From assembly GCF_048403405.1 (NCBI RefSeq), contig NZ_CP183129.1: DNA of 64,000 bases. One strand, given 5' to 3'. This DNA is from Escherichia coli (GTDB lineage Bacteria; Pseudomonadota; Gammaproteobacteria; Enterobacterales; Enterobacteriaceae). Below, one piece after another: positions 29,694-64,000 of this stretch (the first letter of the stretch is position 1; every line of letters begins with the position of its first letter). The position numbers and the translations under genes are program-made. The notes under the pieces were generated by a model. It saw only the letters and a list, made by a program, of their open reading frames with translations, was not told where the DNA came from and ran no database searches.

Positions 29694-29863
29694 GACAGAA
29701 AACCAAAACCGGCTTCATAAGAAGTCGGTTTGAGATTACTGACGAAGTGGTTTACGGGGCCGGTTTTCCCCCTCACCCTCTCCCCGGAGGGGCGAGGGGA
29801 CTGTCTGTGCTGCTCCCAGCATTGGCATTGGACGGAACCTATTTTGACTCGACAAGACGTCCA

Positions 29864-43270: not shown

Positions 43271-44031
43271 GTGTTCCCCGCGCCAGCGGGGATAAACCGC
43301 GTTCAGCGTTGCTGGGCTGCGCAATGGACTGGTGTTCCCCGCGCCAGCGGGGATAAACCGCGGAGTTTTCACGGAACGCACAGCGAATTATGGTGTTCCC
43401 CGCGCCAGCGGGGATAAACCGCCGATAAATTTTCGCCCCGTTTCCAGCGCCGCGTGTTCCCCGCGCCAGCGGGGATAAACCGTTCAAACTGTAGGGATCG
43501 GCAATGGTGCCGAAGTGTTCCCCGCGCCAGCGGGGATAAACCGGGGCATTAGAATAACTTAAATGGAAAAAGAAAGTGTTCCCCGCGCCAGCGGGGATAA
43601 ACCGTCAGCCAGCACATAATTTTTATAGTCAGTATTGTGTTCCCCGCGCCAGCGGGGATAAACCGAAAGAGGTTATCGAGCGATATAACGCGTCCATGTG
43701 TTCCCCGCGCCAGCGGGGATAAACCGGTGCCTGGCGTCCATCTATTCACATGCCGCGCGTGTTCCCCGCGCCAGCGGGGATAAACCGTATTGGCGACGAT
43801 GGCATACCAGGACTACTCCGTGTTCCCCGCGCCAGCGGGGATAAACCGGCTCAGCGTCTGCTCTGGTGCCTCGCCCGTGAGTGTTCCCCGCGCCAGCGGG
43901 GATAAACCGGACCGTTACGGGCGCGTTCTTGGACTTGTTGAGTGTTCCCCACATCAGCGGGGATAAACCGGACACAGAGCGCCGCTATAGCGCCTATGCC
44001 AAGAGTTTCCCGCACCAGCGGGAATAAACCA
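43271..44031 (+). CRISPR. Type I-E CRISPR array: 13 repeats of 29 bp, 12 spacers of 32 bp (the queE-ygcE array of E. coli)
   Basis: Repeat GTGTTCCCCGCGCCAGCGGGGATAAACCG at 43271, 43332, 43393, 43454, 43515, 43576, 43637, 43698, 43759, 43820, 43881, then degenerate copies at 43942 (gtgttccccacatcagcggggataaaccg) and 44003 (gagtttcccgcaccagcgggaataaacca); exact 61-bp period. Confidence 0.97.
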
Positions 44032-47452: not shown

Positions 47453-47629
47453 ATCGTATTCCCATTTGTAATAGACAAAAAAAGAGAAAAGTAAGCCGCC
47501 CTTTCAGGTGGATTACTTTTCTCAGGTCTCTAGTAATTGCAATAAGAAATAACATGGAAAGTAGTGGTGTTGTGTGAGAGTAATCACGCTTCTGCTTTTT
47601 AAAATTATTTGACAATTCGAATATCACAC

Positions 47630-47645
47630 TGTGATTACGATCACA
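47630..47645. promoter_or_regulatory. Consensus CRP binding site upstream of ygcW
   Basis: TGTGAttacgaTCACA, perfect match to both CRP half-sites, centred about 130 bp upstream of the ygcW start; candidate -10 (tatgat / gataaa, 47662-47670) places it near a class II position. Confidence 0.65.
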
Positions 47646-47698
47646 TTAGCGATTATGCCCTTATGATAAAAATTATCTCCAGTTACCAGAGATAATGA

Positions 47699-47743
47699 GA
47701 AAGGTAACTTCCCTCTCGCGGGGGAAGTTACCTTTCTTTTTTT
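47699..47743 (+). terminator. Strong intrinsic terminator inside the ygcW 5' leader (candidate antitermination target)
   Basis: Perfect 15-bp stem gaaaggtaacttccc / gggaagttacctttc (47699-47713 and 47722-47736), 8-nt loop, then TTTTTTT (47737-47743), ending 24 nt before the ygcW ATG. Confidence 0.75.
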
Positions 47744-47767
47744 GCCTTACGGAAATTGGAGCTAACT

Positions 47768-48553
47768 ATGTCAATCGAATCTCTCAATGCGTTCTCAATG
47801 GATTTTTTCTCCCTGAAAGGTAAAACCGCAATTGTTACCGGCGGGAATAGCGGTTTAGGCCAGGCATTTGCCATGGCGCTGGCCAAAGCAGGCGCAAATA
47901 TCTTTATTCCAAGCTTCGTTAAAGATAACGGCGAAACAAAGGAAATGATTGAAAAACAGGGTGTTGAGGTGGACTTCATGCAGGTGGATATCACCGCAGA
48001 AGGCGCGCCGCAGAAGATAATCGCCGCCTGTTGCGAACGTTTCGGTACCGTCGATATTCTGATTAACAATGCCGGTATTTGTAAGCTGAATAAGGTGCTG
48101 GACTTCGGTCGTGCCGACTGGGACCCGATGATTGATGTGAACCTGACCGCCGCATTCGAGTTAAGCTATGAAGCTGCAAAAATTATGATCCCGCAGAAAA
48201 GCGGTAAAATCATTAATATCTGTTCATTATTCTCTTACTTAGGTGGACAATGGTCACCTGCATATTCTGCCACTAAACATGCTCTTGCCGGGTTCACCAA
48301 AGCTTATTGTGATGAACTAGGTCAATATAATATTCAGGTAAATGGTATTGCTCCGGGATATTACGCTACCGATATCACTCTGGCGACCCGTAGTAATCCA
48401 GAAACTAACCAGCGCGTTCTTGATCATATTCCGGCAAACCGTTGGGGCGATACTCAGGATTTAATGGGCGCAGCCGTATTCCTCGCAAGTCCGGCATCGA
48501 ATTATGTCAACGGACATTTATTAGTGGTTGATGGCGGTTATTTAGTGCGCTAA
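47768..48553 (+). CDS. ygcW: Short-chain dehydrogenase/reductase (SDR), uncharacterised
   Basis: Start at ATG 47768 (MSIESLNAF..., RBS ggag 7 nt upstream); NAD(P)-binding motif TGGNSGLG and catalytic YxxxK (YSATK); track start is an upstream TTG. Confidence 0.88.
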   Translation: MSIESLNAFSMDFFSLKGKTAIVTGGNSGLGQAFAMALAKAGANIFIPSFVKDNGETKEMIEKQGVEVDFMQVDITAEGAPQKIIAACCERFGTVDILINNAGICKLNKVLDFGRADWDPMIDVNLTAAFELSYEAAKIMIPQKSGKIINICSLFSYLGGQWSPAYSATKHALAGFTKAYCDELGQYNIQVNGIAPGYYATDITLATRSNPETNQRVLDHIPANRWGDTQDLMGAAVFLASPASNYVNGHLLVVDGGYLVR

Positions 48554-48622
48554 TCCATAACGGTGGTTTCTGTTTTCTCTTATTAATGATTATTCCATTT
48601 TTATTATCAGGAAGGAATTACT

Positions 48623-50077
48623 ATGTCTTTATCTCGCGCAGCGATTGTCGACCAGCTAAAGGAAATTGTTGGTGCAGATCGCGTAATTACCGATGAAACA
48701 GTATTAAAGAAGAACAGTATTGACCGTTTTCGCAAATTTCCGGATATTCATGGCATTTATACTTTGCCGATTCCGGCAGCGGTCGTAAAACTCGGTTCCA
48801 CAGAACAAGTATCCCGTGTGCTGAATTTTATGAATGCGCACAAAATTAACGGTGTGCCGCGTACCGGTGCTTCCGCTACCGAAGGTGGGCTGGAAACCGT
48901 TGTGGAAAACTCGGTGGTGCTCGACGGCTCTGCCATGAATCAAATCATTAATATTGATATTGAGAATATGCAGGCCACGGCGCAATGCGGAGTTCCGCTG
49001 GAAGTGCTGGAAAACGCGTTGCGTGAAAAAGGTTACACCACGGGGCATTCTCCGCAGTCAAAGCCGCTGGCGCAGATGGGCGGCCTGGTAGCAACCCGCA
49101 GTATCGGGCAGTTCTCCACACTCTACGGCGCAATCGAAGATATGGTCGTTGGTCTGGAAGCAGTATTGGCTGATGGCACCGTAACACGCATTAAAAACGT
49201 ACCACGCCGCGCGGCAGGCCCGGACATTCGTCACATCATCATCGGCAACGAAGGTGCATTGTGCTATATCACTGAAGTAACAGTGAAAATCTTTAAGTTC
49301 ACCCCGGAAAACAACCTCTTCTACGGCTATATCCTGGAAGACATGAAAACCGGCTTCAACATCCTGCGTGAAATCATGGTGGAAGGGTATCGTCCGTCGA
49401 TCGCTCGTTTGTATGACGCTGAAGATGGCACCCAACACTTCACCCATTTTGCCGACGGAAAATGCGTGCTGATCTTTATGGCTGAAGGTAACCCTCGCAT
49501 TGCGAAGGCGACGGGCGAAGGGATTGCTGAAATCGTGGCACGTTACCCGCAATGCCAGCGAGTGGACAGCAAGCTGATCGAAACCTGGTTTAACAACCTG
49601 AACTGGGGACCGGATAAAGTAGCTGCCGAACGTGTGCAGATCCTCAAAACCGGCAACATGGGCTTTACCACCGAAGTGTCCGGCTGCTGGAGCTGCATTC
49701 ACGAAATCTACGAAAGCGTTATTAACCGTATTCGTACCGAGTTCCCGCACGCCGACGACATCACCATGCTGGGCGGTCACTCCTCTCATAGCTATCAGAA
49801 CGGCACCAACATGTACTTCGTCTACGACTACAACGTCGTTGACTGTAAGCCGGAAGAGGAAATCGACAAGTACCACAATCCGCTCAACAAAATCATCTGC
49901 GAAGAAACCATTCGCCTCGGTGGTTCGATGGTGCACCACCACGGCATTGGTAAACATCGCGTTCACTGGAGCAAGCTGGAACACGGCAGCGCGTGGGCGT
50001 TGCTGGAAGGGCTGAAAAAGCAGTTCGATCCTAACGGCATTATGAATACGGGTACTATCTATCCGATTGAAAAATAA
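48623..50077 (+). CDS. ygcU: FAD-linked oxidase (alkyldihydroxyacetonephosphate-synthase / D-lactate dehydrogenase-like)
   Basis: 484 aa; FAD-binding PCMH-type domain; matches YgcU. Confidence 0.88.
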   Translation: MSLSRAAIVDQLKEIVGADRVITDETVLKKNSIDRFRKFPDIHGIYTLPIPAAVVKLGSTEQVSRVLNFMNAHKINGVPRTGASATEGGLETVVENSVVLDGSAMNQIINIDIENMQATAQCGVPLEVLENALREKGYTTGHSPQSKPLAQMGGLVATRSIGQFSTLYGAIEDMVVGLEAVLADGTVTRIKNVPRRAAGPDIRHIIIGNEGALCYITEVTVKIFKFTPENNLFYGYILEDMKTGFNILREIMVEGYRPSIARLYDAEDGTQHFTHFADGKCVLIFMAEGNPRIAKATGEGIAEIVARYPQCQRVDSKLIETWFNNLNWGPDKVAAERVQILKTGNMGFTTEVSGCWSCIHEIYESVINRIRTEFPHADDITMLGGHSSHSYQNGTNMYFVYDYNVVDCKPEEEIDKYHNPLNKIICEETIRLGGSMVHHHGIGKHRVHWSKLEHGSAWALLEGLKKQFDPNGIMNTGTIYPIEK

Positions 50078-50170
50078 TGTGTCAGGCAGCGTTCCGCGAT
50101 GACGGAGCGTTGCCTTTTCGGCTTCTCAGGCGAGAAGCCGTTCTTATTACCGGACAATGAAGGGGTAAAG

Positions 50171-51508
50171 ATGAACACTTCACCGGTGCGAATGGATGAT
50201 TTACCGCTTAACCGTTTTCACTGTCGAATTGCTGCGCTCACTTTCGGCGCACACCTGACCGACGGTTATGTTCTCGGCGTCATTGGTTACGCCATTATTC
50301 AGCTTACGCCCGCCATGCAACTGACGCCGTTAATGGCGGGAATGATTGGCGGCTCGGCGCTCCTTGGTTTGTTTCTTGGCAGCCTGGTTCTTGGATGGAT
50401 CTCCGACCATATTGGTCGGCAAAAAATCTTCACCTTCAGCTTTTTGCTGATTACGCTCGCTTCGTTTTTACAATATTTTGCCACCACGCCAGAGCATCTT
50501 ATAGGACTACGCATTTTGATTGGCATTGGTCTGGGAGGCGATTACTCAGTAGGTCACACTTTGCTGGCTGAATTTTCTCCGCGCCGCCATCGCGGTGTTT
50601 TGCTGGGCGCATTCAGTGTGGTGTGGACCGTAGGCTATGTGCTGGCAAGTATTGCCGGACATCACTTTATTACCGAAAGCCCGGAGGCCTGGCGCTGGCT
50701 GCTGGCATCAGCGGCGTTACCAGCCTTGCTGATTACGCTGCTACGTTGGGGAACGCCAGAATCGCCACGCTGGCTACTGCGCCAGGGGCGTTTTGCAGAA
50801 GCTCACGCTATCGTGCATCGCTACTTTGGTCCCCATGTTTTACTGGGCGATGAAGTGGCAACGGCGACCCATAAACACATCAAAACCTTGTTCTCTTCGC
50901 GCTACTGGCGGCGCACGGCGTTTAACAGCGTCTTCTTTGTCTGCCTCGTAATCCCATGGTTTGTGATTTACACCTGGCTGCCAACTATCGCGCAAACTAT
51001 TGGTCTGGAAGATGCGCTGACAGCTAGCCTGATGCTTAATGCGTTGTTAATTGTGGGCGCGCTGCTGGGATTAGTTCTGACGCACCTGCTGGCACATCGC
51101 AAATTTTTGCTGGGAAGTTTTTTGCTGCTGGCGGCAACGCTGGTAGTGATGGCCTGTTTGCCTTCCGGTAGTTCATTAACGCTGCTGCTTTTTGTTCTCT
51201 TCAGCACCACCATTTCGGCAGTCAGTAATCTGGTGGGCATTTTGCCTGCGGAAAGTTTTCCTACTGACATTCGCTCGCTGGGCGTCGGTTTTGCCACCGC
51301 CATGAGTCGGTTGGGCGCGGCAGTAAGTACGGGCCTGCTGCCGTGGGTGCTGGCGCAGTGGGGAATGCAAGTCACCTTATTGCTCCTGGCGGCAGTGTTG
51401 TTGGTTGGTTTTGTCGTGACCTGGCTATGGGCACCAGAAACCAAAGCACTCCCGCTGGTGGCGGCGGGAAATGTAGGAGGTGCGAATGAACATTCTGTTA
51501 GCGTTTAA
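50171..51508 (+). CDS. ygcS: MFS transporter (sugar-porter-like, uncharacterised)
   Basis: Start at ATG 50171 (MNTSPVRMDDLPL..., RBS aggggt); 12 TM MFS protein; the track start is 24 codons upstream. Confidence 0.85.
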   Translation: MNTSPVRMDDLPLNRFHCRIAALTFGAHLTDGYVLGVIGYAIIQLTPAMQLTPLMAGMIGGSALLGLFLGSLVLGWISDHIGRQKIFTFSFLLITLASFLQYFATTPEHLIGLRILIGIGLGGDYSVGHTLLAEFSPRRHRGVLLGAFSVVWTVGYVLASIAGHHFITESPEAWRWLLASAALPALLITLLRWGTPESPRWLLRQGRFAEAHAIVHRYFGPHVLLGDEVATATHKHIKTLFSSRYWRRTAFNSVFFVCLVIPWFVIYTWLPTIAQTIGLEDALTASLMLNALLIVGALLGLVLTHLLAHRKFLLGSFLLLAATLVVMACLPSGSSLTLLLFVLFSTTISAVSNLVGILPAESFPTDIRSLGVGFATAMSRLGAAVSTGLLPWVLAQWGMQVTLLLLAAVLLVGFVVTWLWAPETKALPLVAAGNVGGANEHSVSV

Positions 51509-52265
51509 AGCCGAACCGGATGCCGGAATGCTGGCGGAAAAAGAGTGGCAGGCGGCGGCTCAGGGTAATAGCGGACCGGATGTTTCGCTTCTGCTAAGTT
51601 TACTCGGTGCTGATGAACAGGCTGCCGCCGCGCTGCTGTTGGCGCAGAGAAAAAACGGTACGTCGATGTCTTTAACCGCGTTGAGCATGGGGAATGAACG
51701 GGCGTTGCACTGGCTGCGCTATCTCATGGCTCTTGGGTTTGAGGAAGCTGTATTGCTGGAGACGGCGGCAGATCTGCGCTTTGCGCCGGAATTTGTCGCT
51801 CGCCATATTGCCGAATGGCAGCGTCAGAATCCGCTGGATCTGATAATTACCGGCTGCCAAAGCAGCGAAGGGCAGAATGGGCAAACGCCATTTTTGCTGG
51901 CGGAAATGCTGGGCTGGCCCTGCTTCACCCAGGTGGAGCGTTTCACTCTCGACGCGCCGTTTATCACCCTCGAACAGCGTACTGAACATGGGCTGCGCTG
52001 TTGCCGGGTTCGCTTGCCTGCGGTGATTGCCGTGCGTCAGTGTGGTGAAGTGGCCTTGCCAGTACCGGGAATGCGCCAGCGAATGGCTGCGGGGAAAGCA
52101 GCAATTATCCGTAAAACTGTTGCTGCCGAATCGCCAGCGATGCAGTGTCGGCAACTGGCAAGAGCAGAGCAACGACGCGGAGCGACGCTGATTGATGGGC
52201 AAACGGTAGCAGAAAAAGCGCAAAAGCTATGGCAGGACTATTTACGCCAAAGGATGCAGCCATGA
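51486..52265 (+). CDS. ygcR: Electron-transfer flavoprotein beta-subunit paralog (FixA-like)
   Basis: MNILLAFKAEPDAGMLAEKEW...; ETF-beta-like; start ATG 51486 with RBS aggagg; overlaps ygcS 3' end by 23 nt. Confidence 0.82.
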   Translation: MNILLAFKAEPDAGMLAEKEWQAAAQGNSGPDVSLLLSLLGADEQAAAALLLAQRKNGTSMSLTALSMGNERALHWLRYLMALGFEEAVLLETAADLRFAPEFVARHIAEWQRQNPLDLIITGCQSSEGQNGQTPFLLAEMLGWPCFTQVERFTLDAPFITLEQRTEHGLRCCRVRLPAVIAVRQCGEVALPVPGMRQRMAAGKAAIIRKTVAAESPAMQCRQLARAEQRRGATLIDGQTVAEKAQKLWQDYLRQRMQP

Positions 52266-53122
52266 ATATCGCAATTGTGACAATAAATCAGGAGAATGCC
52301 GCAATAGCGAGCTGGCTGGCAGAACAGGATTTCAGCGGTTGTACCCTGGCACACTGGCAGATTGAACCTCAGCCCGCTGTGGCGGAACAGGTACTGGATG
52401 CGCTGGTGGAACAGTGGCAGCGAACGCCTGCGGACGTTGTTATCTTTCCGCCGGGAACGTTTGGCGATGAACTGTCGACCCGGCTGGCCTGGCGTTTACA
52501 TGGTGCAAGCATCTGCCAGGTGACTTCGTTAGATATTCCAACCGTAAGCGTGCGCAAATCCCACTGGGGAAATGCGCTAACGGCGACGCTGCAAACAGAA
52601 AAACGCCTGCTATGCCTTTCCCTGGCGCGTCAGGCGGGAGCAGCGAAAAACGCCACGTTGCCCTCTGGTATGCAGCAACTGAACATTGTCCCAGGTGCGC
52701 TTCCCGACTGGCTGGTTAGCATAGAGAATCTGAAAAATGTTAGCCGCGACCCATTAGCTGAAGCCAGACGGGTGCTGGTGGTGGGGCAGGGCGGAGAGGC
52801 AGATAACCAGGAAATCGCTATGCTGGCAGAAAAGCTGGGAGCCGAAGTGGGCTACAGTCGGGCGCGAGTGATGAACGGTGGCGTTGATGCTGAAAAAGTG
52901 ATTGGTATTTCCGGACATCTGCTGGCACCTGAGGTGTGCATTGTTGTTGGCGCTTCCGGCGCAGCAGCGTTAATGGCGGGCGTACGCAATAGCAAGTTTG
53001 TGGTGGCGATTAATCATGACGCCAGCGCGGCGGTATTTTCACAGGCAGATGTTGGCGTGGTTGATGACTGGAAAGCGGTGCTGGAGGCACTGGTGACAAA
53101 CATTCACGCAGATTGCCAATAA
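52262..53122 (+). CDS. ygcQ: Electron-transfer flavoprotein alpha-subunit paralog (FixB-like)
   Basis: MNIAIVTINQENAAIASWLAEQ...; ETF-alpha-like; ATGA overlap with the ygcR stop. Confidence 0.82.
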   Translation: MNIAIVTINQENAAIASWLAEQDFSGCTLAHWQIEPQPAVAEQVLDALVEQWQRTPADVVIFPPGTFGDELSTRLAWRLHGASICQVTSLDIPTVSVRKSHWGNALTATLQTEKRLLCLSLARQAGAAKNATLPSGMQQLNIVPGALPDWLVSIENLKNVSRDPLAEARRVLVVGQGGEADNQEIAMLAEKLGAEVGYSRARVMNGGVDAEKVIGISGHLLAPEVCIVVGASGAAALMAGVRNSKFVVAINHDASAAVFSQADVGVVDDWKAVLEALVTNIHADCQ

Positions 53123-53170
53123 CGTGTTGCCGGATGATCCTGCCGATGGTTCTGGGCTGGGGATTTGTAA

Positions 53171-53204
53171 GCCTGATAAGACGCGTCAAGCGTCGTATCA
53201 GGCG
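53171..53204. repeat. REP element (part of a BIME-like cluster spanning about 53125-53235) between convergent ygcQ and ygcP
   Basis: gcctgataagacgcgtcaagcgtcgtatcaggcg palindrome flanked by further partial REP copies (gccggatg..., gtcggatgtggcgtg...). Confidence 0.7.
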
Positions 53205-53268
53205 CTGAATGTCGGATGTGGCGTGCAGCCTACAAATCACACAAATTCAATTCGTTACGATTATCCCG

Positions 53269-53844
53269 TCAAAGCAATTTTTTCGCTAGCGTCCAGACCC
53301 CGGTATTCGTGGTGGAAAGCGCCACAACACCCGCGTTAATCGCATTACGCGCATCTTCTTCATCGCACACCAGCCCGCCGGCAATCAGCGGTTGGCGGAT
53401 TTTCTCCGTCACCCAGCCCAGCACTTTGGGCATACAGCCTGGCAGGATCTCAATACAATCCGGATTCGATTGCGCAACTTGCTTATCAATGTTGTGAAAC
53501 GAAATCGAATCAACAATAAACAGGCGATGAATACAGAAAAAACCTTCCGCTCTTGCTGCTTTCAGCATCGATGCTTTCGTGCTGATAATGCCGTCCGCCT
53601 CAGTCACCAGTTTCAAAAACTGAATCACCACTTCTTTATTTGACGCGCCTTCCAGCAAATCAACATGAATAAAAGCATATTTTCCGGCGTTCTTAATCTT
53701 TTTAACGATATTACTGATGGTGCAGATATTGCCGTACAACACGGAAATAAACTGGCATTCAGAGTCGATTGCCAGTTGCAGGCTGGCATTATCTTTAACG
53801 GCAGCAATCACCGGATTCTGGCGGAGCAGGTGTAAGAGGGGCAT
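53269..53844 (-). CDS. ygcP: GlpP-like glycerol-3-phosphate-responsive transcription antiterminator family protein
   Basis: 191 aa MPLLHLLRQNPVIAAVKDNASLQLAIDSECQFISVLYGNICT...; resembles the B. subtilis GlpP antiterminator family. Confidence 0.85.
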   Translation of the reverse strand: MPLLHLLRQNPVIAAVKDNASLQLAIDSECQFISVLYGNICTISNIVKKIKNAGKYAFIHVDLLEGASNKEVVIQFLKLVTEADGIISTKASMLKAARAEGFFCIHRLFIVDSISFHNIDKQVAQSNPDCIEILPGCMPKVLGWVTEKIRQPLIAGGLVCDEEDARNAINAGVVALSTTNTGVWTLAKKLL

Positions 53845-53860
53845 AAATTATCCTTATTAT

Positions 53861-54121
53861 TTATCCAAAACGGTAGGTGATGCCGAATCCGGAAGGCGGA
53901 TAGCGCCACTGTTGTAGTGTTGATTCGTCGCACAGCAAACGGCAGGTGCCACACTCCAGGCAGCCGCGATAATCAACGCGTAAGTCACCTTCCGGTGTGA
54001 GCGAAAAAAGACCAGCCGGACAAGCGTTAATCAACCGTTGTACCGTCTGACGCTCAACGGAGTCAGCCGGAACAATGTGCGGCGCATCGGCAACGCGCCA
54101 GAGATTACGGGCTACAGACAT
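53861..54121 (-). CDS. ygcO: Ferredoxin-like protein (FixX-like)
   Basis: 86 aa from the ATG at 54121 (MSVARNLWRV...); Cys cluster CxxCxxC (CLECGTCRLLC); track ORF extends upstream. Confidence 0.8.
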   Translation of the reverse strand: MSVARNLWRVADAPHIVPADSVERQTVQRLINACPAGLFSLTPEGDLRVDYRGCLECGTCRLLCDESTLQQWRYPPSGFGITYRFG

Positions 54122-55383
54122 CGCAGACTCCTGATAACATCGCCCGCCAGATGCCACAGGCCGTGACGACGTAAATGACGCCAGAATAACTGGCGCAGCG
54201 GTGGAACAGGTTTATCACCCTGATCCCATAAATCACGGGAAATATCCTGCATTAACGCAGGCCATGCACGGTACCATCCAGGGCGTTGCAAAAGCGCCGG
54301 AACATGCTGATAACGTTGTAGAACATCCCATAGCAGGCTGCGCTCTATGTTGTGATGATAAAGCGCAAACAGATTTTGCGGCTCGCGGTGCTGGCAGGCG
54401 CTTATCAGCGTTTGTGCCGCCGCCTGCGCGCCAGTCAGCGCCATATCCATGCCGCGCACGGAAATTCCGGTATTGACGCAACTGCGCAACGCATCGCCCA
54501 GCAGCAGCCAGCCGTTACCGGCGTATTGCACCGGCATACTGTGCAAGCCACCTTCTGGCACCAGATGCGCACCATACTCCAGTGATTCCGTGTTTTTGAT
54601 AAGCGGGCGCACTGCCGGATGCGTTTTAAAGCGAGCCAGCAGCTCGCTTGCCGGAACACGACTTTGCGTAAGGGAAGAGAGCGGGCAAACAATCCCTAAC
54701 GAGAGCGTTTGTTGATTAGTATAAAGAAATGTGCCGCCGGGTAAGTCATCACAGATCCTGCCGCTGAACAGCAACGCTGCGCCTTCGTTATTCTCCAGAT
54801 GAAAACGTTCTTCAATAGCGGATGTTTCCAGCGACAGCACTTCTTTGATCCCCAACGCCATCGCTTCGCCAGCAGGACGAGTCACTAACCCGTGACGTTC
54901 AGCCAGGACGCTGTTGGCACCTTCTGCCAGCACCACATAACGGGCGCGGAGAATATCGTCACCACAAATGACACCACACACCCTGCCGTTTTCTTCATAC
55001 AGCGCATCCACCGTCGCACCAGGGATGCATTCGACACCTTCTTTTTCGGCTTCGGCAACCAGCCACGGATCGAACCGTGCACGTAATACGCTCCAGGATT
55101 CACCGCCGGGCTGTAAGCTGGAAAACGTCGTTGCGCCATCCGGCGTTAACAGGGAAAGGCTTTCGTGAGTGATGCGTCGTTCAAGAGGCGCGGTCAGATG
55201 AAATTGTGGGAGGAGTTCCGCGAGCGCATGGGTGTATAAACGCCCGCCGGAAAGGTTTTTACTGCCGGGAATTTCAGCTCGTTCCAGTAACAGAACGGAC
55301 AAACCTGCCCGCGCGCAGCGTAAAGCACAAGCGGTGCCTGCTATACCCGCACCAATAATAATAATGTCGCAGTCGTCTTCCAT
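54112..55383 (-). CDS. ygcN: FAD-dependent oxidoreductase (FixC / ETF-quinone oxidoreductase-like)
   Basis: FAD-binding motif IIIIGAGIAG near the N-terminus; start uncertain (ATG at 55383 or 55395, GTG at 55413). Confidence 0.82.
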   Translation of the reverse strand: MEDDCDIIIIGAGIAGTACALRCARAGLSVLLLERAEIPGSKNLSGGRLYTHALAELLPQFHLTAPLERRITHESLSLLTPDGATTFSSLQPGGESWSVLRARFDPWLVAEAEKEGVECIPGATVDALYEENGRVCGVICGDDILRARYVVLAEGANSVLAERHGLVTRPAGEAMALGIKEVLSLETSAIEERFHLENNEGAALLFSGRICDDLPGGTFLYTNQQTLSLGIVCPLSSLTQSRVPASELLARFKTHPAVRPLIKNTESLEYGAHLVPEGGLHSMPVQYAGNGWLLLGDALRSCVNTGISVRGMDMALTGAQAAAQTLISACQHREPQNLFALYHHNIERSLLWDVLQRYQHVPALLQRPGWYRAWPALMQDISRDLWDQGDKPVPPLRQLFWRHLRRHGLWHLAGDVIRSLRCL

Positions 55384-55460
55384 GTCGTGCCCCATATATC
55401 CAGAGCGCAACACCCTAACATAGCGTTACTTAAGGGAAATTGACCGCCGACACACTCTTA

Positions 55461-55826
55461 TCATTCGCCGCGATAGATGCAACCTGCGGTGCAGGTTTCT
55501 TTCACCATAACCGCACTTAACAGCGGAACAACCGGTTTAACCTGATCCCAAATCCATTTTGCTAAAACCTCGCTGGTCGGGTTTTCCAGGCCAGGAATAT
55601 CATTGAGATAATAGTGATCGAGGCGCTCGTAGGTTGGCTTAAACGCCGCTTTTAGTTCAGCGAAATCGATAATCCAGCCCGTATGCGGATCGACTTCCCC
55701 GGTAATTTCCAGTCGCACCATAAAGGAATGCCCGTGCAGGCGACCACATTTATGCCCTTCCGGGACGTGTGGTAAGCGGTGAGCGGCTTCGAAGGTGAAA
55801 TCTTTAAATAACGTGGTGGACATCAT
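55461..55826 (-). CDS. queD: 6-carboxy-5,6,7,8-tetrahydropterin synthase
   Basis: 121 aa [35 protein letters not shown]... matches QueD; track ORF extends 28 codons upstream. Confidence 0.93.
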
Positions 55827-56141
55827 AATTTCTCTACATGACGATAAAACCGCCGTAGAGTACCGGAAAGGCTGTTTTTTCGCATTATCTAAAACGACTT
55901 TGTTGCGCAAAATCGCTGATTTATCTTAATGATTGGCTAAATTCATTTGTTTTTCATTGGGTTGGTTAATCTGTTTTGTTGTTAAAGACTATTGCTAAAA
56001 CAGGTTAGTCGATTTGGTTATTAGTTATCGCTATCCCGTCTTTAATCCACACCGTTCACCCCGTTAACCTTACCTTCTCTTCTGTTTTATGGGCGCTGAC
56101 AGGGCGCAGAAACAGCTTTGCTTACTGGAACATAACGACGC

Positions 56142-57941
56142 ATGACGACACAGGTCCCACCTTCCGCGTTGCTTCCGTTGAACCCGGAGCAACTGGCACG
56201 CCTTCAGGCGGCCACGACCGATTTAACTCCCACCCAGCTTGCCTGGGTTTCTGGCTATTTCTGGGGCGTGCTCAACCAGCAGCCTGCTGCGCTTGCAGCG
56301 ACGCCAGCGCCCGCCGCAGAAATGCCGGGTATAACTATTATCTCTGCTTCGCAAACCGGCAATGCGCGCCGGATTGCTGAAGCATTACGCGATGATTTAT
56401 TGACGGCAAAACTGAACGTTAAGCTGGTGAACGCGGGCGACTATAAATTCAAACAAATCGCCAGCGAAAAACTGCTTATCGTGGTGACGTCAACGCAAGG
56501 GGAAGGGGAACCGCCGGAAGAAGCCGTCGCGCTGCATAAGTTCCTGTTCTCCAAAAAAGCGCCGAAGCTGGAAAACACCGCGTTTGCCGTGTTTAGCCTC
56601 GGCGATAGTTCTTATGAATTTTTCTGCCAGTCCGGGAAAGATTTTGACAGTAAGCTGGCGGAACTGGGCGGTGAACGCCTGCTCGACCGTGTCGATGCCG
56701 ACGTTGAATACCAGGCTGCTGCCAGCGAGTGGCGCGCCCGCGTGGTTGATGCGCTTAAATCGCGTGCGCCTGTCGCGGCACCTTCGCAATCCGTCGCTAC
56801 TGGCGCGGTAAATGAAATCCACACCAGCCCGTACAGCAAAGACGCGCCGCTGGTGGCGAGCCTCTCTGTTAACCAGAAAATTACCGGGCGTAACTCTGAA
56901 AAAGACGTTCGCCATATCGAAATTGACTTAGGTGACTCGGGCCTGCGTTACCAGCCGGGTGACGCGCTGGGTGTCTGGTATCAGAACGATCCGGCACTGG
57001 TGAAAGAACTTGTCGAACTGCTGTGGCTGAAAGGTGATGAACCTGTCACCGTTGAGGGCAAAACCCTGCCGCTGAACGAAGCGCTACAGTGGCACTTCGA
57101 ACTGACCGTCAACACCGCCAACATTGTTGAGAACTATGCCACGCTTACCCGCAGCGAAACGCTGCTGCCGCTGGTGGGCGATAAAGCGAAGTTACAGCAT
57201 TACGCCGCGACGACGCCGATTGTCGACATGGTGCGTTTCTCTCCGGCGCAACTGGATGCCGAAGCGCTGATTAACCTGCTGCGCCCGCTGACCCCGCGCC
57301 TGTATTCCATCGCCTCCTCGCAGGCGGAAGTCGAGAACGAAGTACACGTCACCGTTGGCGTGGTGCGTTACGACGTGGAAGGCCGCGCCCGTGCCGGTGG
57401 TGCCTCCAGCTTCCTCGCGGACCGCGTGGAAGAAGAGGGCGAAGTCCGCGTCTTTATCGAACATAACGATAACTTCCGCCTGCCAGCCAATCCGGAAACC
57501 CCGGTGATTATGATTGGCCCAGGCACCGGCATCGCGCCGTTCCGCGCCTTTATGCAGCAGCGCGCTGCTGACGAAGCGCCGGGGAAAAACTGGCTGTTCT
57601 TTGGCAACCCGCACTTTACGGAAGATTTCCTCTACCAGGTGGAGTGGCAGCGCTACGTCAAAGAGGGCGTGCTGACGCGTATCGATCTCGCCTGGTCGCG
57701 CGATCAAAAAGAAAAAGTTTACGTACAAGACAAACTGCGCGAACAGGGCGCGGAGCTGTGGCGCTGGATCAATGACGGTGCCCACATTTATGTCTGCGGC
57801 GACGCTAATCGCATGGCGAAAGACGTTGAGCAGGCACTTCTGGAAGTGATTGCCGAATTTGGTGGCATGGACACCGAAGCGGCGGATGAATTTTTAAGTG
57901 AGCTGCGCGTAGAGCGCCGTTATCAGCGAGATGTCTACTAA
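56142..57941 (+). CDS. cysJ: Sulfite reductase [NADPH] flavoprotein alpha subunit
   Basis: 599 aa [28 protein letters not shown]... matches CysJ. Confidence 0.97.
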
Positions 57942-59653
57942 TGAGCGAAAAACATCCAGGGCCTTTAGTGGTCGAAGGAAAACTGACAGACGCCGAGCGC
58001 ATGAAGCTTGAAAGCAACTACCTGCGCGGCACCATTGCGGAAGATTTAAACGACGGCCTGACCGGTGGTTTTAAGGGCGACAACTTCCTGCTGATCCGCT
58101 TCCACGGCATGTATCAGCAGGATGACCGCGACATCCGCGCCGAACGTGCTGAACAGAAGCTGGAGCCACGTCATGCAATGCTGTTGCGCTGTCGTCTGCC
58201 GGGTGGGGTTATTACCACCAAACAGTGGCAGGCGATCGATAAATTTGCCGGTGAAAACACCATCTATGGCAGCATTCGCCTGACCAACCGCCAGACGTTT
58301 CAGTTCCACGGCATTCTGAAAAAGAACGTCAAACCGGTGCACCAGATGCTGCACTCGGTCGGTCTTGATGCGCTGGCGACTGCTAACGACATGAACCGTA
58401 ACGTACTCTGCACCTCGAACCCTTACGAGTCGCAGCTGCACGCGGAAGCCTATGAATGGGCGAAGAAAATCTCTGAACATCTGCTGCCGCGTACCCGCGC
58501 GTATGCGGAGATCTGGCTCGATCAGGAAAAAGTCGCCACCACCGATGAAGAACCGATCCTCGGTCAGACTTATTTGCCGCGTAAATTCAAAACCACGGTA
58601 GTGATCCCGCCGCAGAACGATATCGATCTGCACGCCAACGACATGAACTTCGTGGCGATCGCCGAAAACGGCAAGTTGGTGGGCTTTAACCTGCTGGTGG
58701 GCGGTGGGCTTTCTATCGAACACGGCAACAAGAAAACCTACGCCCGCACGGCGAGTGAGTTTGGTTATCTGCCGCTGGAGCATACGCTGGCGGTGGCAGA
58801 AGCCGTCGTGACGACTCAGCGCGACTGGGGTAACCGTACCGATCGTAAAAATGCCAAAACCAAATACACGCTGGAGCGCGTGGGAGTTGAGACGTTTAAA
58901 GCGGAAGTGGAGCGTCGCGCGGGGATCAAATTTGAACCGATCCGTCCATATGAGTTCACCGGACGCGGCGATCGTATTGGTTGGGTTAAGGGCATTGATG
59001 ATAACTGGCACCTGACGCTGTTTATCGAAAATGGTCGCATCCTTGATTATCCGGGGCGTCCGCTGAAAACTGGCCTGCTGGAGATCGCGAAGATCCACAA
59101 AGGTGATTTCCGCATTACGGCGAACCAGAATCTGATCATCGCCGGTGTGCCGGAAAGCGAGAAAGCGAAGATCGAGAAGATCGCCAAAGAGAGCGGGTTA
59201 ATGAATGCCGTCACGCCGCAGCGTGAAAACTCAATGGCCTGCGTGTCATTCCCGACTTGCCCGCTGGCGATGGCCGAAGCCGAGCGTTTCCTGCCGTCTT
59301 TTATCGACAACATCGATAATTTAATGGCGAAACATGGTGTCAGCGATGAGCATATCGTGATGCGTGTAACAGGCTGCCCGAACGGTTGTGGTCGCGCGAT
59401 GCTGGCGGAAGTGGGCCTGGTGGGTAAAGCGCCGGGTCGCTACAACCTGCATCTTGGCGGCAACCGCATTGGGACACGTATCCCACGGATGTATAAAGAA
59501 AACATCACCGAGCCGGAAATCCTGGCGTCGCTTGATGAACTGATAGGGCGCTGGGCGAAAGAGCGCGAAGCGGGTGAAGGCTTCGGCGACTTTACGGTGC
59601 GTGCGGGCATCATTCGCCCGGTGCTCGATCCGGCGCGCGATTTGTGGGATTAA
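57941..59653 (+). CDS. cysI: Sulfite reductase [NADPH] hemoprotein beta subunit
   Basis: 570 aa [30 protein letters not shown]... matches CysI; start overlaps the cysJ stop (TAATG). Confidence 0.97.
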
Positions 59654-59670
59654 CCATCAGCCCGGTCTTG

Positions 59671-59705
59671 TAGGCCTGATAAGACGCGTGAGCGTCGCAT
59701 CAGGC
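59671..59705. repeat. REP element in the cysI-cysH spacer
   Basis: taggcctgataagacgcgtgagcgtcgcatcaggc. Confidence 0.7.
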
Positions 59706-59726
59706 AAGGCAAACAGTGAGGAATCT

Positions 59727-60461
59727 ATGTCCAAACTCGATCTAAACGCCCTGAACGAACTGCCGAAGGTAGATCGCATTCTGGCGCTGGCGGAAACTAA
59801 CGCCGAACTGGAAAAACTGGACGCTGAAGGCCGCGTTGCTTGGGCGCTGGATAATCTGCCCGGTGAATATGTACTTTCTTCTAGCTTTGGCATTCAGGCG
59901 GCGGTGAGCCTGCATCTGGTGAATCATATTCGCCCGGATATTCCAGTGATCCTCACCGATACCGGTTATCTGTTCCCGGAAACCTACCGCTTTATTGACG
60001 AGTTAACGGACAAACTCAAGCTCAACCTGAAAGTGTACCGTGCTACCGAAAGCGCGGCCTGGCAGGAAGCACGCTACGGCAAACTGTGGGAACAGGGCGT
60101 TGAAGGCATTGAAAAGTACAATGACATCAACAAAGTCGAACCGATGAACCGGGCGCTGAAAGAACTTAACGCGCAAACCTGGTTTGCTGGCCTGCGCCGT
60201 GAACAATCCGGCAGCCGCGCCAATTTACCGGTGCTGGCAATTCAGCGTGGCGTATTTAAAGTGCTGCCGATTATCGACTGGGATAACCGAACTATTTATC
60301 AGTACCTGCAAAAACATGGCCTGAAATATCACCCATTATGGGACGAAGGATATTTATCGGTGGGCGATACCCATACAACCCGTAAATGGGAACCCGGCAT
60401 GGCGGAAGAAGAAACGCGTTTCTTTGGCTTAAAAAGGGAATGTGGGTTACACGAAGGGTAA
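59727..60461 (+). CDS. cysH: Phosphoadenosine phosphosulfate (PAPS) reductase
   Basis: 244 aa [36 protein letters not shown]...; the track ORF begins upstream inside the REP / cysI 3' end. Confidence 0.96.
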
Positions 60462-60479
60462 ATATTGCCGGATAAATTA

Positions 60480-60517
60480 AACGCCTCTGTCAGAAATGAT
60501 GGGGGCGTTTTTATTTT
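60480..60517 (+). terminator. Candidate cysH intrinsic terminator
   Basis: aacgcc...ggcgtt stem with a long loop followed by tttttatttt. Confidence 0.4.
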
Positions 60518-60725
60518 GCGAGCAGCATTCCGGCATTTAAAGGTGAACATCGCAGGGAGAATTAACAGGTATAGAATGGAGTTGGGTGCTTGAGGCTGTC
60601 TGGCGTTAAGCATTCGCGAGGTTCCAGATGGACAAAAGCCCCAGGCGATATTTCTATCAACCTGAGGCCAGCGTTCGAACCTAAGCAATTCGAATGTTAG
60701 TCTCTTCTTTGCAGGGAGGCAAGAC

Positions 60726-60878
60726 ATGCTGACAAAATATGCCCTTGTGGCAATCATCGTACTGTGTTGTACAGTACTGGGATTCACGCTGATGGTAGGC
60801 GACTCGTTGTGTGAGTTGAGTATCAGAGAACGTGGTATGGAGTTTAAGGCAGTTCTCGCTTACGAATCGAAGAAGTAG
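60726..60878 (+). CDS. Hok-family type I toxin (50-aa small membrane protein), part of a hok/sok-like locus
   Basis: [53 protein letters not shown]: N-terminal TM helix plus conserved Hok motif DSLCE...R...[11 protein letters not shown]; below the 60-aa cutoff of the ORF track; followed by hairpin cgcgggg gtaaaa ccccgcg (60885-60904) and a T run; K-12 carries a hok/sok-type locus (sokX) at this position. Confidence 0.8.
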
Positions 60879-61115
60879 CCACCACGCGGGGGTAAAACCC
60901 CGCGTATTGGATTGTGATGGTTTGGTCTCCTGCACCCTTTTTTAATTTATATTGTTTATGTAAATATTATGCCTATGTTTATTATTCATATATATTACGG
61001 ATGAAAATTATTTGATTATTCATAATGTAAATATTTTATTGAACGATATATATCACAGATAATTTTTAATATATGCGTAAATATCCTTTAAGTTTTACTG
61101 AAGGATAAAAACATT

Positions 61116-63773
61116 GTGACTTTCTTTGATTTCTGGGGAAAAACCCGACGTGGCGAGAAAGAGGGTGGTGACGACTATCACCTTCTTTGCTGGCATTCGC
61201 TGGATGTAGCCGCGATGGGCTATTTAATGGTTAAAAGCAATTGCTTCGGGCTGGCTGACTATTTTCGTCAACTAGGTTTCGCTGATACGGAGCAGGCAGC
61301 ACAATTTTTCGCCTGGTTGCTGTGCTGGCACGATACTGGAAAATTTGCCCGCTCTTTTCAGCAACTTTACCTGCACCCGCAACTCAAGGTTCCGGAAAGC
61401 TCTAGAAAAAATTACGAAAAAATCTCTCATTCAACGCTGGGTTACTGGTTGTGGCACCATTATTTAAGTGAATGCGAAGAATTGCTTCCTTCATCTTCAC
61501 TCTCTCCGCGCAAACTTAAACGGGTGATAGAGATGTGGATGCCCATGACTACCGGGCATCATGGTCGCCCGCCTGACCGTATGGATGAACTGGATAATTT
61601 TCTGCCTGAAGACAAAGCCGCCGCGCGAGATTTTCTCCTTGTAATCAAGGCACTGTTTCCTCTCATCGAGATCCCCGCATTCTGGGATGATGACGATGGC
61701 GTTGAACTTTTAAAACAACTTTCCTGGTATATCTCTGCAACTGTCGTACTTGCAGACTGGACGGGATCGTCAACGCGATTTTTTCCACGCGTCGCGCAGG
61801 CAATGGATATTGAAGATTACTGGCAGAAGGCTTTAGTTCAGGCTCAAAACGCATTAACCGTCTTTCCTCCAAAAGCACAAACCGCGCCTTTCACCGGAAT
61901 TAATACGCTGTTTCCTTTTATTGAGCACCCGACACCGTTACAGCAAAAGGTGCTGGATCTGGATATCAGCCAGCCTGGGCCACAGTTATTTATTCTGGAG
62001 GATGTGACTGGCGCAGGTAAAACAGAAGCGGCGCTTATCCTGGCCCACAGGTTGATGGCTGCGGGGAAAGCACAGGGTTTGTTTTTTGGCCTGCCAACAA
62101 TGGCAACGGCCAATGCCATGTACGATCGGCTGGTAAAAACCTGGCTTGCTTTCTATTCGCCAGAATCCCGCCCCAGCCTGGTGCTGGCACACAGTGCCCG
62201 CACATTAATGGACCGCTTTAATGAATCACTCTGGTCCGGTGATTTAGTCGGGTCAGAAGAACCGGATGAACAAGCGTTCAGTCAGGGATGTGCGGCCTGG
62301 TTTGCCGACAGTAACAAGAAGGCGTTGCTGGCTGAAATTGGCGTCGGCACGCTGGATCAGGCGATGATGGCGGTGATGCCGTTTAAACATAATAATCTGC
62401 GGCTTCTGGGACTGAGTAACAAAATCCTGCTGGCTGATGAGATCCATGCCTGTGACGCTTACATGTCGTGCATTCTTGAAGGATTGATTGAGCGGCAGGC
62501 GCGTGGCGGAAACAGCGTTATTTTGCTTTCTGCCACGTTATCTCAACAGCAGCGCGACAAACTCGTTGCTGCCTTTGCGCGTGGTGCAGAGGGTCAGCAA
62601 GAAGCTCCGTTCCTGGAAAAGGATGATTACCCCTGGCTGACGCACGTTACGAAATCGGATGTGCATTCACACCGGGTAGCAACGCGCAAAGACGTTGAGC
62701 GTAGCGTGAGCGTGGGTTGGCTTCATAGCGAACAAGAGTGTATTGCGCGTATCGAATCGGCGGTAAGTCAGGGGAAATGCATCGCCTGGATCCGGAATTC
62801 TGTCGATGATGCTATTAAAGTTCATCGTCAGTTGCTTGCCCGCGGCGTCATTCCTGCTTCCAGCCTTTCTCTGTTTCATAGCCGCTTTGCTTTTAGCGAT
62901 CGCCAGCGAATTGAAACGGAAACGCTGGCACGCTTCGGTAAAGAAGATAGCTCACAGCGTGCCGGAAAAGTCCTCATTTGTACTCAGGTCTTAGAGTCGA
63001 GCGTTGATTGCGATATGGACGAAATGATTTCCGACCTGGCCCCTGTTGATTTGCTGATCCAGCGAGCGGGGCGATTACAGCGGCATATCCGCGATATTAA
63101 TGGTCAGTTAAAGCGTGACGGAAAAGACGAGCGTTCTCCTCCTGAATTGCTGATTCTGGCCCCCGTCTGGGACGACGCTCCAGGTGACGAATGGTTCGGC
63201 AGTGCCATGCGTAACAGTGCATATGTCTATCCCGATCATGGACGAATCTGGCTGACGCAGCGTGTACTGCGTGAGCAAGGCGCGATTCAAATGCCACACG
63301 CAGCCCGCCTTCTTATTGAATCAGTCTACGGTGAGGACGTGGTAATGCCGGAAGGATTTGCCCGCAGCGAGCAGGAACAAGTGGGCAAATATTACTGCGA
63401 TCGCGCAATGGCTAAAAAGTTTGTGCTGAACTTCAGGCCCGGCTATGCCGCCAATATCAACGATTACCTCCCGGAAAAGCTGTCGACACGTCTGGCTGAG
63501 GAGTCTGTTTCCCTGTGGCTGGCTACCTGTATTGACGGTGTGGTGAAGCCTTATGCCACCGGTGCTCACGCATGGGAAATGAGCGTTGTCAGAGTGCGTC
63601 GAAGCTGGTGGAAAAAACATTGCGATGAGTTTTCTTTACTGGAAGGGGAAGCGTTCAGGCAGTGGTGCGTTGAACAGCGGCAAGATCCGGAGATGGCAAA
63701 TGTGATTTTAGTTACCGATGACGAAAGTTGCGGGTATTCGGCTAGGGAGGGATTGATTGGTAAGGTTGATTGA
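61116..63773 (+). CDS. cas3: Cas3 (type I-E CRISPR-associated HD nuclease / SF2 helicase), non-K-12 allele
   Basis: 885 aa; HD motifs (HSLDVAA, WHDTGKF), helicase motif I TGAGKTEA, motif II DEIH, motif III SATL, motif VI QRAGRLQRH; GTG start; sits directly downstream of cysH as in E. coli; N-terminal sequence differs from the K-12 Cas3 I recall (MEPFKYICHYWGKS...). Confidence 0.9.
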   Translation: MTFFDFWGKTRRGEKEGGDDYHLLCWHSLDVAAMGYLMVKSNCFGLADYFRQLGFADTEQAAQFFAWLLCWHDTGKFARSFQQLYLHPQLKVPESSRKNYEKISHSTLGYWLWHHYLSECEELLPSSSLSPRKLKRVIEMWMPMTTGHHGRPPDRMDELDNFLPEDKAAARDFLLVIKALFPLIEIPAFWDDDDGVELLKQLSWYISATVVLADWTGSSTRFFPRVAQAMDIEDYWQKALVQAQNALTVFPPKAQTAPFTGINTLFPFIEHPTPLQQKVLDLDISQPGPQLFILEDVTGAGKTEAALILAHRLMAAGKAQGLFFGLPTMATANAMYDRLVKTWLAFYSPESRPSLVLAHSARTLMDRFNESLWSGDLVGSEEPDEQAFSQGCAAWFADSNKKALLAEIGVGTLDQAMMAVMPFKHNNLRLLGLSNKILLADEIHACDAYMSCILEGLIERQARGGNSVILLSATLSQQQRDKLVAAFARGAEGQQEAPFLEKDDYPWLTHVTKSDVHSHRVATRKDVERSVSVGWLHSEQECIARIESAVSQGKCIAWIRNSVDDAIKVHRQLLARGVIPASSLSLFHSRFAFSDRQRIETETLARFGKEDSSQRAGKVLICTQVLESSVDCDMDEMISDLAPVDLLIQRAGRLQRHIRDINGQLKRDGKDERSPPELLILAPVWDDAPGDEWFGSAMRNSAYVYPDHGRIWLTQRVLREQGAIQMPHAARLLIESVYGEDVVMPEGFARSEQEQVGKYYCDRAMAKKFVLNFRPGYAANINDYLPEKLSTRLAEESVSLWLATCIDGVVKPYATGAHAWEMSVVRVRRSWWKKHCDEFSLLEGEAFRQWCVEQRQDPEMANVILVTDDESCGYSAREGLIGKVD

Positions 63774-63777
63774 GATG

Positions 63778-63801
63778 CCCTGGAGTCGGAGGACTCCAGG
63801 G
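63778..63801 (+). other. GC-rich hairpin 5 nt after the cas3 stop codon
   Basis: ccctggagtc ggag gactccaggg, 10-bp perfect stem with 4-nt loop, no following U run. Confidence 0.6.
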
Positions 63802-63889
63802 CCTATCCCCGCTGACGCGGGGAACGGAATAACAGAGTAACAGGAGCTACCTCTTACTGCTGGTTTATCCCTACGTTAATAGGGAAGAA
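63799..63889 (-). repeat. Two degenerate CRISPR-repeat-like units in inverted orientation, 62 bp apart
   Basis: gggcctatccccgctgacgcggggaacgg (63799-63827) matches the reverse complement of the array repeat at 24 of 29 positions with the stem-loop preserved; ctggtttatccctacgttaatagggaaga (63861-63889) matches at 17 of 29, concentrated at both ends; spacing close to the 61-bp array period. Confidence 0.5.
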
Positions 63890-64000
63890 GGGAGTATAGC
63901 ATCTACTGAGATGAATTTGTTTTGATATTTAATGTGAACTTCCTCTTACTGCCTTTACATTTTTCTATGCGAGGAGTAATCTTTGCTCAGTTTGGGAGAG

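Follow-up and report, generated by a model that had tools for sequence, protein, structure and literature searches.

Introduction

Two forms of the type I-E cas cassette have been named in Escherichia coli, based on an analysis of 131 strains by Almendros et al. (2014, mBio; PMC3903273). The cas-E1 form is that of the majority, including O157:H7, and the cas-E2 form is that of K-12 and a minority of group A strains. In that study, the major cluster is cas-E1, which also holds the E. albertii and S. enterica outgroups, and K-12 is placed in cas-E2 together with most group A strains, S. dysenteriae Sd197 and E. fergusonii. The hok/sok locus was found in every strain but those with E2, the mean GC content was 53.5% for E1 and 45.6% for E2, the CRISPR2.1 array of E1 has a leader of its own (L1), and recombination within E1 had already been reported (PMC3903273). 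Here, we consider a cas3 gene at positions 61116-63773 of a stretch of 64,000 nucleotides of E. coli DNA (contig NZ_CP183129.1 of RefSeq assembly GCF_048403405.1), referred to throughout as the window, and the cas3-casA intergenic spacer that follows it.

A second body of work concerns this intergenic region. Long cas3-cas8 spacers are reported to be present in about 20% of I-E loci, and the mini-arrays described are read opposite to cas3, with targets that carry an AAG protospacer-adjacent motif (PAM) near the E. coli cas8 promoter (bioRxiv 10.1101/2023.03.03.530964). The CreR of the Salmonella enterica I-E system has been tested experimentally in E. coli (bioRxiv 10.1101/2023.03.10.532045).

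Our analysis leads us to conclude, with high confidence, that the window gene is the intact cas3 of a cas-E1 type I-E cassette and that the K-12 cassette is the result of a replacement in a minority lineage. As the dimorphism was already published in 2014 (PMC3903273), the finding, though correct, is nothing out of the ordinary, and the unusual allele is that of K-12.

Results

Identity of the cas3 gene

The gene under study is described as follows.

61116..63773, plus strand: cas3, E1 variant, type I-E, with a GTG start and 885 amino acids, comprising an HD nuclease, a superfamily 2 (SF2) helicase and a C-terminal domain.

The translated open reading frame (ORF) begins with MTFFDFWGKTRRGEKEGGDDYHLL and, judging by its domain matches and motifs, is a complete Cas3. 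The HD domain is matched by NCBIfam TIGR01596 at residues 24-219 (85.4 bits against a cut-off of 43.45) and the helicase core by TIGR01587 (213 bits against a cut-off of 102.45), while Pfam assigns residues 7-223 to Cas3_HD and 552-658 to the Cas3 C-terminal domain (Cas3-like_C_2). The nuclease motifs (HD at 72-73 and GHHG at 147) and the helicase motifs (GAGKT at 299, DEIH at 441, SAT at 472 and QRAGRL at 649) all align with those of the K-12 protein. The first-pass annotation of the window, made from the sequence alone, had listed the HD and SF2 helicase motifs as complete, and the family matches and the motif alignment bear this out. The closest solved relatives are the type I-E Cas3 chains 4q2c (E = 2e-79) and 4qqw/6c66 (E = 1e-63), which match over nearly the full length. 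The matches cover the HD and helicase regions; the structures are distant homologues, and no E1-type enterobacterial Cas3 structure was found among the structure matches. By homology, Cascade bound to a target matched by its CRISPR RNA would recruit this Cas3, whose HD domain would nick the displaced strand and whose helicase would serve to unwind and degrade DNA.

The K-12 MG1655 Cas3 (YgcB, b2761, NC_000913.3) is the reference against which the window protein stands out. The two share family, domain order, length (888 and 885 amino acids), catalytic motifs and chromosomal site, yet a BLASTP alignment gives only 28.8% amino acid identity over 816 columns (E = 2e-78), far from any identity above 90%. 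The earlier remark, made on the N-terminal sequence, that this Cas3 is unlike that of K-12 is confirmed. The window Cas3 scores 424 bits against PRK09694, the NCBIfam equivalog reached by K-12-type Cas3, which is under the cut-off of 569.

The conserved left flank and its breakpoint

To the left of cas3, the window and K-12 are largely the same. As judged by blastn, window positions 167-60728 are collinear with K-12 positions 2947685-2887311, from the metZWV tRNAs to the cysH-cas3 spacer, with block-by-block nucleotide identities of 98.1%, 98.0%, 97.2% and 96.2%. For cysJ, cysI and cysH, the identities are 96.8-97.7% for nucleotides and 99.3-99.6% for amino acids. The features between this flank and cas3 are listed below.

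59727..60461, plus strand: cysH, the conserved left flank gene (NCBIfam phosphoadenosine phosphosulfate, or PAPS, reductase, 345 bits), 97.7% nucleotide and 99.6% amino acid identity to K-12.
60584..60741, plus strand: hok mRNA leader and sok antisense region (Rfam RF01794, sok, 111.7 bits, E = 8e-26).
60726..60878, plus strand: hok-family toxin ORF of 50 amino acids, a coding sequence that K-12 does not have at this site.
60726..60729, no strand: left recombination breakpoint, from blastn end points and base-level alignment.
60879..61115, no strand: hok-cas3 spacer, E1-specific, AT-rich (27.8% GC), without K-12 homology and kept in E1 strains.

The homology with K-12 stops exactly after GGCAAGACATG, the ATG of which is the hok start codon (window 60728 corresponds to K-12 2887311), and blastn returned no nucleotide alignment to K-12 beyond window position 60728. 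Because the homology ends after this ATG, the variable side of the breakpoint includes the hok coding sequence. A comparison of breakpoints in the cysH-cas3 spacer, proposed with the first-pass annotation, thus revealed a sharp left breakpoint at the hok ATG. The accompanying description of the neighboring genes as K-12-like stands for cysH and the left flank but has to be corrected for the hok-like ORF.

The hok ORF gives HokA and Hok NCBIfam matches under the curated cut-offs and carries the annotation WP_000956458.1, 'Hok/Gef family protein', in E. coli TUM14771, O157 and S1bESBLb. In K-12, sokX (b4701) is annotated within the stretch homologous to the window hok leader and sok region; positions 60584-60878 of the window form a complete hok/sok type I toxin-antitoxin locus, of which K-12 has the leader and sokX only. 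The hok-cas3 spacer is the counterpart of the E1-linked intergenic region described in Almendros 2014 (PMC3903273) and is presumed to be the cas3 promoter region.

Further along the left flank, collinearity with K-12 is briefly broken at 29735-29847 (barA-gudD) and 1808-1825 (tcdA-mltA), both intergenic, where the sequence differs in length from K-12 or is replaced. At its left end, the window opens within a 'phosphoglycerate dehydrogenase' gene (positions 1-166), which directly adjoins the metV initiator tRNA (tRNA-Met genes, 169-466). K-12 lacks this sequence at the corresponding place, 1686 of 5426 E. coli genomes have it, and it is probably the margin of an island that inserted at metV.

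Extension of the locus beyond the window

As the window ends 227 nucleotides past cas3, the downstream cas genes and the array were read from E. coli TUM14771 (NZ_CP128875.1). Over window positions 47117-64000 (16.9 kb), this genome shows no mismatches and five indel columns, with no indel near cas3, and its cas3 is 100% identical in nucleotides to that of the window. The gene order after cas3 in TUM14771 is casA, casB, cas7e, cas5e, cas6e, cas1e, cas2e, the clustered regularly interspaced short palindromic repeat (CRISPR) array, iap and cysD. The identities of this locus to K-12 are as follows.

cas3: about 28% amino acid, 50.5% nucleotide.
casA-casE: 20-29% amino acid, 47.0-51.3% nucleotide.
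cas1 and cas2: about 84% amino acid, 71.1% nucleotide.
iap and cysD: 99% amino acid, 97-99% nucleotide.

The right breakpoint lies inside the CRISPR array adjoining iap, where high identity to K-12 resumes. The GC content of the window cas3 is 51.2%, compared to 44.7% for K-12 cas3, and for the block from cas3 to cas2, the values are 51.1% in TUM14771 and 44.8% in K-12. The TUM14771 value is about 2 points under the published E1 mean and is nearer to E1 than to E2.

The indels between the window and TUM14771 were found at 47476, 47736 and 52151-52152, with two falling within homopolymer runs. The GC dinucleotide at 52151-52152 lies in ygcR and is missing from TUM14771, whose ygcR is annotated as 'frameshifted'; this pseudogene label may reflect an assembly error or an assembly difference in TUM14771.

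Probable replacement of the cassette in the K-12 lineage

Four observations lead us to favor replacement over divergence in place, namely that a Cas3 of 28.8% amino acid identity stands beside flanks at 96-98% nucleotide identity, that the left breakpoint is sharp to the base and the right one lies inside the array, that identity is modular (20-29% for Cas3 and CasA-E, about 84% for Cas1 and Cas2 and 99% for the flanks), and that the GC content of cas3 differs, at 51.2% and 44.7%. In the minority lineage represented by K-12, the block from just past the hok start codon to inside the iap-side array would have been replaced. The incoming module would have been a low-GC, foreign cas-E2, and the core genes around it would have kept their within-species similarity. 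The suggestion from the first-pass annotation that alternative I-E cas cassettes occupy one chromosomal site is in agreement with the cassette and flank identities, with the breakpoints and with Almendros 2014.

Assignment to cas-E1, relatives and frequency

On sequence grounds, the window cassette is cas-E1, the majority form among I-E-positive E. coli. As in the E1 strains described, hok/sok is present, with the hok ORF at 60726-60878 and the Rfam sok match at 60584-60741, and the site (cysH-hok/sok-cas3...cas2-array-iap) and gene order of cas-E1 are those of the window strain. The window cas3 also falls with the E1 cluster, being 94.5% identical in nucleotides to that of O157:H7 (cas-E1; protein WP_001233978.1, 95.6% amino acid identity), 92.5% to that of E. 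albertii and about 70% in amino acids to that of Salmonella. An assignment to cas-E2 is contradicted by the 28.8% identity to K-12 Cas3 and by the sub-threshold PRK09694 score. The K-12 cas-E2 locus further differs in being without the hok coding sequence and in having another upstream spacer.

Relatives of the window Cas3 were searched across one genome per species. E. albertii and an Escherichia sp. are among the closest (94% amino acid identity), Klebsiella spallanzanii shows 76% identity, and Intestinirhabdus, Phytobacter, Citrobacter youngae, Klebsiella indica, K. grimontii and Salmonella enterica subsp. diarizonae are at 70-73%. Because the Salmonella, Citrobacter and Klebsiella relatives are at 70-73% identity, compared to 28.8% for K-12, E1 is, from these comparisons, the ordinary enterobacterial form and K-12 the exception. 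These related Salmonella, Citrobacter and Klebsiella systems occupy the cysH-iap site, as E1 does. E. coli-type cas3 (94-96% amino acid identity) was also encountered in a Collinsella-binned metagenome-assembled contig and in a Pseudocitrobacter vendiensis assembly, where it most likely reflects contamination or mis-binning rather than real transfer.

Frequencies were counted over 5426 complete RefSeq E. coli genomes.

E1-type cas3: any match in 2777 of 5426 genomes, with at least 80% query coverage in 2423.
E2 (K-12-type) cas3: any match in 1177 of 5426 genomes, with at least 80% coverage in 1131.

A rare mosaic sub-lineage with a long cas3-casA spacer

Although the cassette is of the common form, the window allele differs from common cas-E1 in an extra T located 5' of the GTG start and in a cas3-casA distance of 465 nucleotides (in TUM14771 and the window strain) instead of 98. 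Only 6 genomes, that of strain MS 69-1 among them, carry a cas3 at least 99% identical to that of the window, with 485 falling at 95-99% and 2286 at 90-95%. The complete 465-nucleotide spacer was likewise found in 6 genomes, and its first approximately 55 nucleotides in 14 (megablast, blastn). Other full-length E. coli cas3 genes, among the matches listed, are 92.6-96.4% identical in nucleotides to the window gene, and the E. albertii gene, at 92.5%, is as near as many E. coli alleles. In a sliding comparison with S1bESBLb, identity was 100% over approximately 61866-62466 and fell to 87% over 62766-63066. As judged from these comparisons, the window allele belongs to a rare mosaic E1 sub-lineage with a long cas3-casA spacer and a CreR-type mini-array, the elements of which are listed below.

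63778..63801, no strand: hairpin of high GC content, its stem 10 bp long, located just past the stop codon of cas3 and predicted in the RNA fold.
63799..63889, minus strand: CreR-like mini-array (repeat-spacer-repeat), with units about 62 nucleotides apart, near the 61-nucleotide array period.
63889-63861, minus strand: PsiR1, a degenerate repeat that keeps the 5' handle ATAAACCA and hairpin.
63860-63828, minus strand: PsiS, a spacer-like unit of 33 nucleotides.
63827-63799, minus strand: PsiR2, a repeat-like unit sharing 23 of 29 positions with the array repeat and differing at 6.
63939..63955, minus strand: predicted PsiS target, with an AAG PAM (canonical for I-E) at 63955-63953.

A I-E array is also present within the window itself, at 43271-44030 between ygcE and queE. 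It consists of 13 repeats of GTGTTCCCCGCGCCAGCGGGGATAAACCG with a 61-nucleotide period, the final two being degenerate, and the aligned K-12 array spans only about 395 nucleotides.

When the mini-array was folded as minus-strand RNA, both repeat hairpins formed (z = -7.0), and the hairpin at 63778-63801 is conserved in three further variants with a long spacer. Bases 1-11 of PsiS (GCAGTAAGAGG) recur on the minus strand at 63952-63942; position 12 is mismatched and positions 13-14 match. The three other variants, from E. coli 06-00048, E. coli ECNB21-M121 and K. spallanzanii, each carry another PsiS together with a target of their own flanked by an AAG or ATG PAM. These targets came to light only with a mismatch allowed at every sixth position and with the spacer start moved by one base, exact seed matches for the three other spacer variants being absent. 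The first guide-target mismatches in the variants fall at positions 6, 12 and 18, which are described in the literature as not contributing to pairing. In 2000 shufflings of the spacer region, performed for each of the four variants, no PAM-flanked run of at least 10 was obtained. The K-12 cas3-casA spacer holds an analogous element, with an AAG PAM and mismatches at positions 6 and 9. Its spacer and target sequences differ from those of the window, as they do among the four variants examined.

A consensus scan of the cas3-casA spacer found no promoters or terminators, and a permissive Rfam search of 60300-64000 returned only sok and a sub-threshold ctRNA, with no CRISPR direct-repeat family on the mini-array. 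The element resembles CreR and other regulatory mini-arrays in its degenerate repeat pair, in the spacer-length segment between them, in its orientation antisense to cas3 and in its seed site with an AAG PAM. As in CreR, the 5' handle is preserved in the upstream repeat and the hairpin in the downstream one. The element at 63799-63955 is thus best filed as a putative member of the known CreR class of cas-regulating RNAs; we found no description of the E1 E. coli mini-array versions in the literature. More tentatively, the rare long spacer could hold a working CreR-type self-repression circuit in E1 E. coli, in which a transcript processed by Cas6e would repress the casA promoter through Cascade; such spacers would then be a small set of exchangeable regulatory cassettes, each with a guide and target that co-vary. 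We regard this as a serious possibility, although one that we would not yet put ahead of its negation.

Alternative explanations

The difference from K-12 could be ascribed to fast divergence, in place, of one ancestral cassette under diversifying selection. The cas genes are indeed fast-evolving: even between E1 alleles, 4-7% of the nucleotides of cas3 differ, compared to 1-4% for the flanking cys genes. Such a process should, however, not produce a fall from about 97% nucleotide identity to no detectable similarity at a single base, nor leave Cas3 and CasA-E at 20-29% identity yet Cas1 and Cas2 at 84%, nor open a GC gap of 6.5 points. Moreover, the E1 Cas3 is nearer to that of Salmonella and Klebsiella (70-73%) than to that of K-12 (29%), and Almendros 2014 puts E. 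fergusonii on the E2 side and E. albertii and Salmonella on the E1 side. Given the sharp breakpoint, the modular identity, the GC gap and the closer relatives outside E. coli, this explanation was rejected and can be considered effectively refuted, with next to no probability left to it. Replacement in the K-12 lineage being retained, one may still ask if the window allele, together with its 465-nucleotide spacer, is a recent import from another enterobacterial species, and hence a third cassette type rather than an ordinary E1. The same 6 genomes carry both the cas3 of at least 99% identity and the long spacer, the spacer has two short homologous stretches in common with K. spallanzanii, and the 5' end of casA is unlike that of common E1. 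Nonetheless, the coding genes are 94-98% identical in nucleotides to common E1, parts of cas3 are 100% identical to that of another E. coli, and identity to the K. spallanzanii Cas3 is no higher than 76%. These observations are consistent with a mosaic within E1 that carries a variable spacer, through recombination of the kind already described (PMC3903273), and we therefore consider an import unlikely.

The reading of the gene as intact depends on its start codon. The stretch immediately upstream is annotated as coding in other strains.

61073..61115, plus strand: upstream stretch that the NCBI Prokaryotic Genome Annotation Pipeline (PGAP) takes as the first 14 cas3 codons in other strains, with TTTT at 61097-61100 where others have TTT.

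Because of the one extra T at 61097-61100, the ATG at 61073 is out of frame in the window and meets a stop after 11 codons. If this T shifted the true N-terminus out of frame, cas3 would be a pseudogene and the I-E system would be without a working nuclease. In support of this, PGAP labels the identical TUM14771 cas3 a 'frameshifted' pseudogene starting 43 nucleotides upstream, and the O157:H7 and S1bESBLb genes are annotated from an ATG 42 nucleotides upstream, yielding 899 amino acids. On the other hand, K-12 Cas3 has nothing that corresponds to the 14-codon extension: its N-terminus lines up with the GTG-started protein and starts four residues earlier. Nor is the extension conserved as coding in E. 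albertii, Salmonella, Citrobacter, Klebsiella, Phytobacter or Intestinirhabdus. In these six taxa, the upstream stretch is unrelated, with no conserved in-frame ATG and often with a stop within 15-24 nucleotides, while all six have a GTG, TTG or ATG start at, or no more than 3 codons from, the equivalent of GTG 61116. This start lies 4-5 codons ahead of a conserved (N/H)YWGK and mostly has a GGAG- or GGGA-like motif upstream. An Escherichia sp. genome has the TTTT run too, as does a contig labelled Pseudocitrobacter, and the 885 codons after the GTG are uninterrupted. Since conservation across genera covers the start codon but not the extension upstream of it, GTG 61116 is most likely the native start and cas3 intact, and the PGAP flag is probably an annotation artefact that stems from a mis-set reference start codon. 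Following the cross-genus comparison of the start region, a frameshifted pseudogene was rejected as the likelier reading, and we hold it to be quite improbable. An assembly error in the TTTT run was also ruled out, as the run is common to the window, TUM14771 and two other genomes, with no indel near cas3.

Some points that weigh against an intact E1 cassette should be considered when referring to these results. The Shine-Dalgarno-like AAGGA lies 11 nucleotides before GTG 61116, which is longer than optimal, and PGAP, as noted, calls the identical gene frameshifted; if the upstream ATG were the true start in E1, the window allele would have lost its native start. In addition, casA to cas2 and the adjoining array lie outside the window and were read from TUM14771, a separate record, albeit one with no mismatches.

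Significance

As a discovery, the dimorphism itself carries little weight, since the E1/E2 replacement at cysH-iap has been known since 2014 and the window has the common form. The present analysis adds the precise position of the left breakpoint (the hok ATG), a correction concerning hok, a likely frameshift mis-annotation and a rare mini-array with co-variation of guide and target. For annotators, a 'frameshifted cas3' flag in this sub-lineage probably points to a mis-set reference start codon.

As K-12 is atypical, results on K-12 Cas3 and on cas regulation in K-12 may not transfer to the approximately two-thirds of I-E-positive E. coli that carry E1. For CRISPR biologists, the few E1 strains with a CreR-like mini-array offer natural variants for studies of Cascade self-regulation. 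Spacers of this kind are limited to about 14 of the 5426 E. coli genomes and also occur in Klebsiella spallanzanii. If the proposed circuit does operate, Cascade expression in these few lineages would be controlled unlike that of K-12, which relies on H-NS/LeuO and a mini-array of its own, and also unlike that of the bulk of E1, whose 98-nucleotide spacer is without a mini-array.

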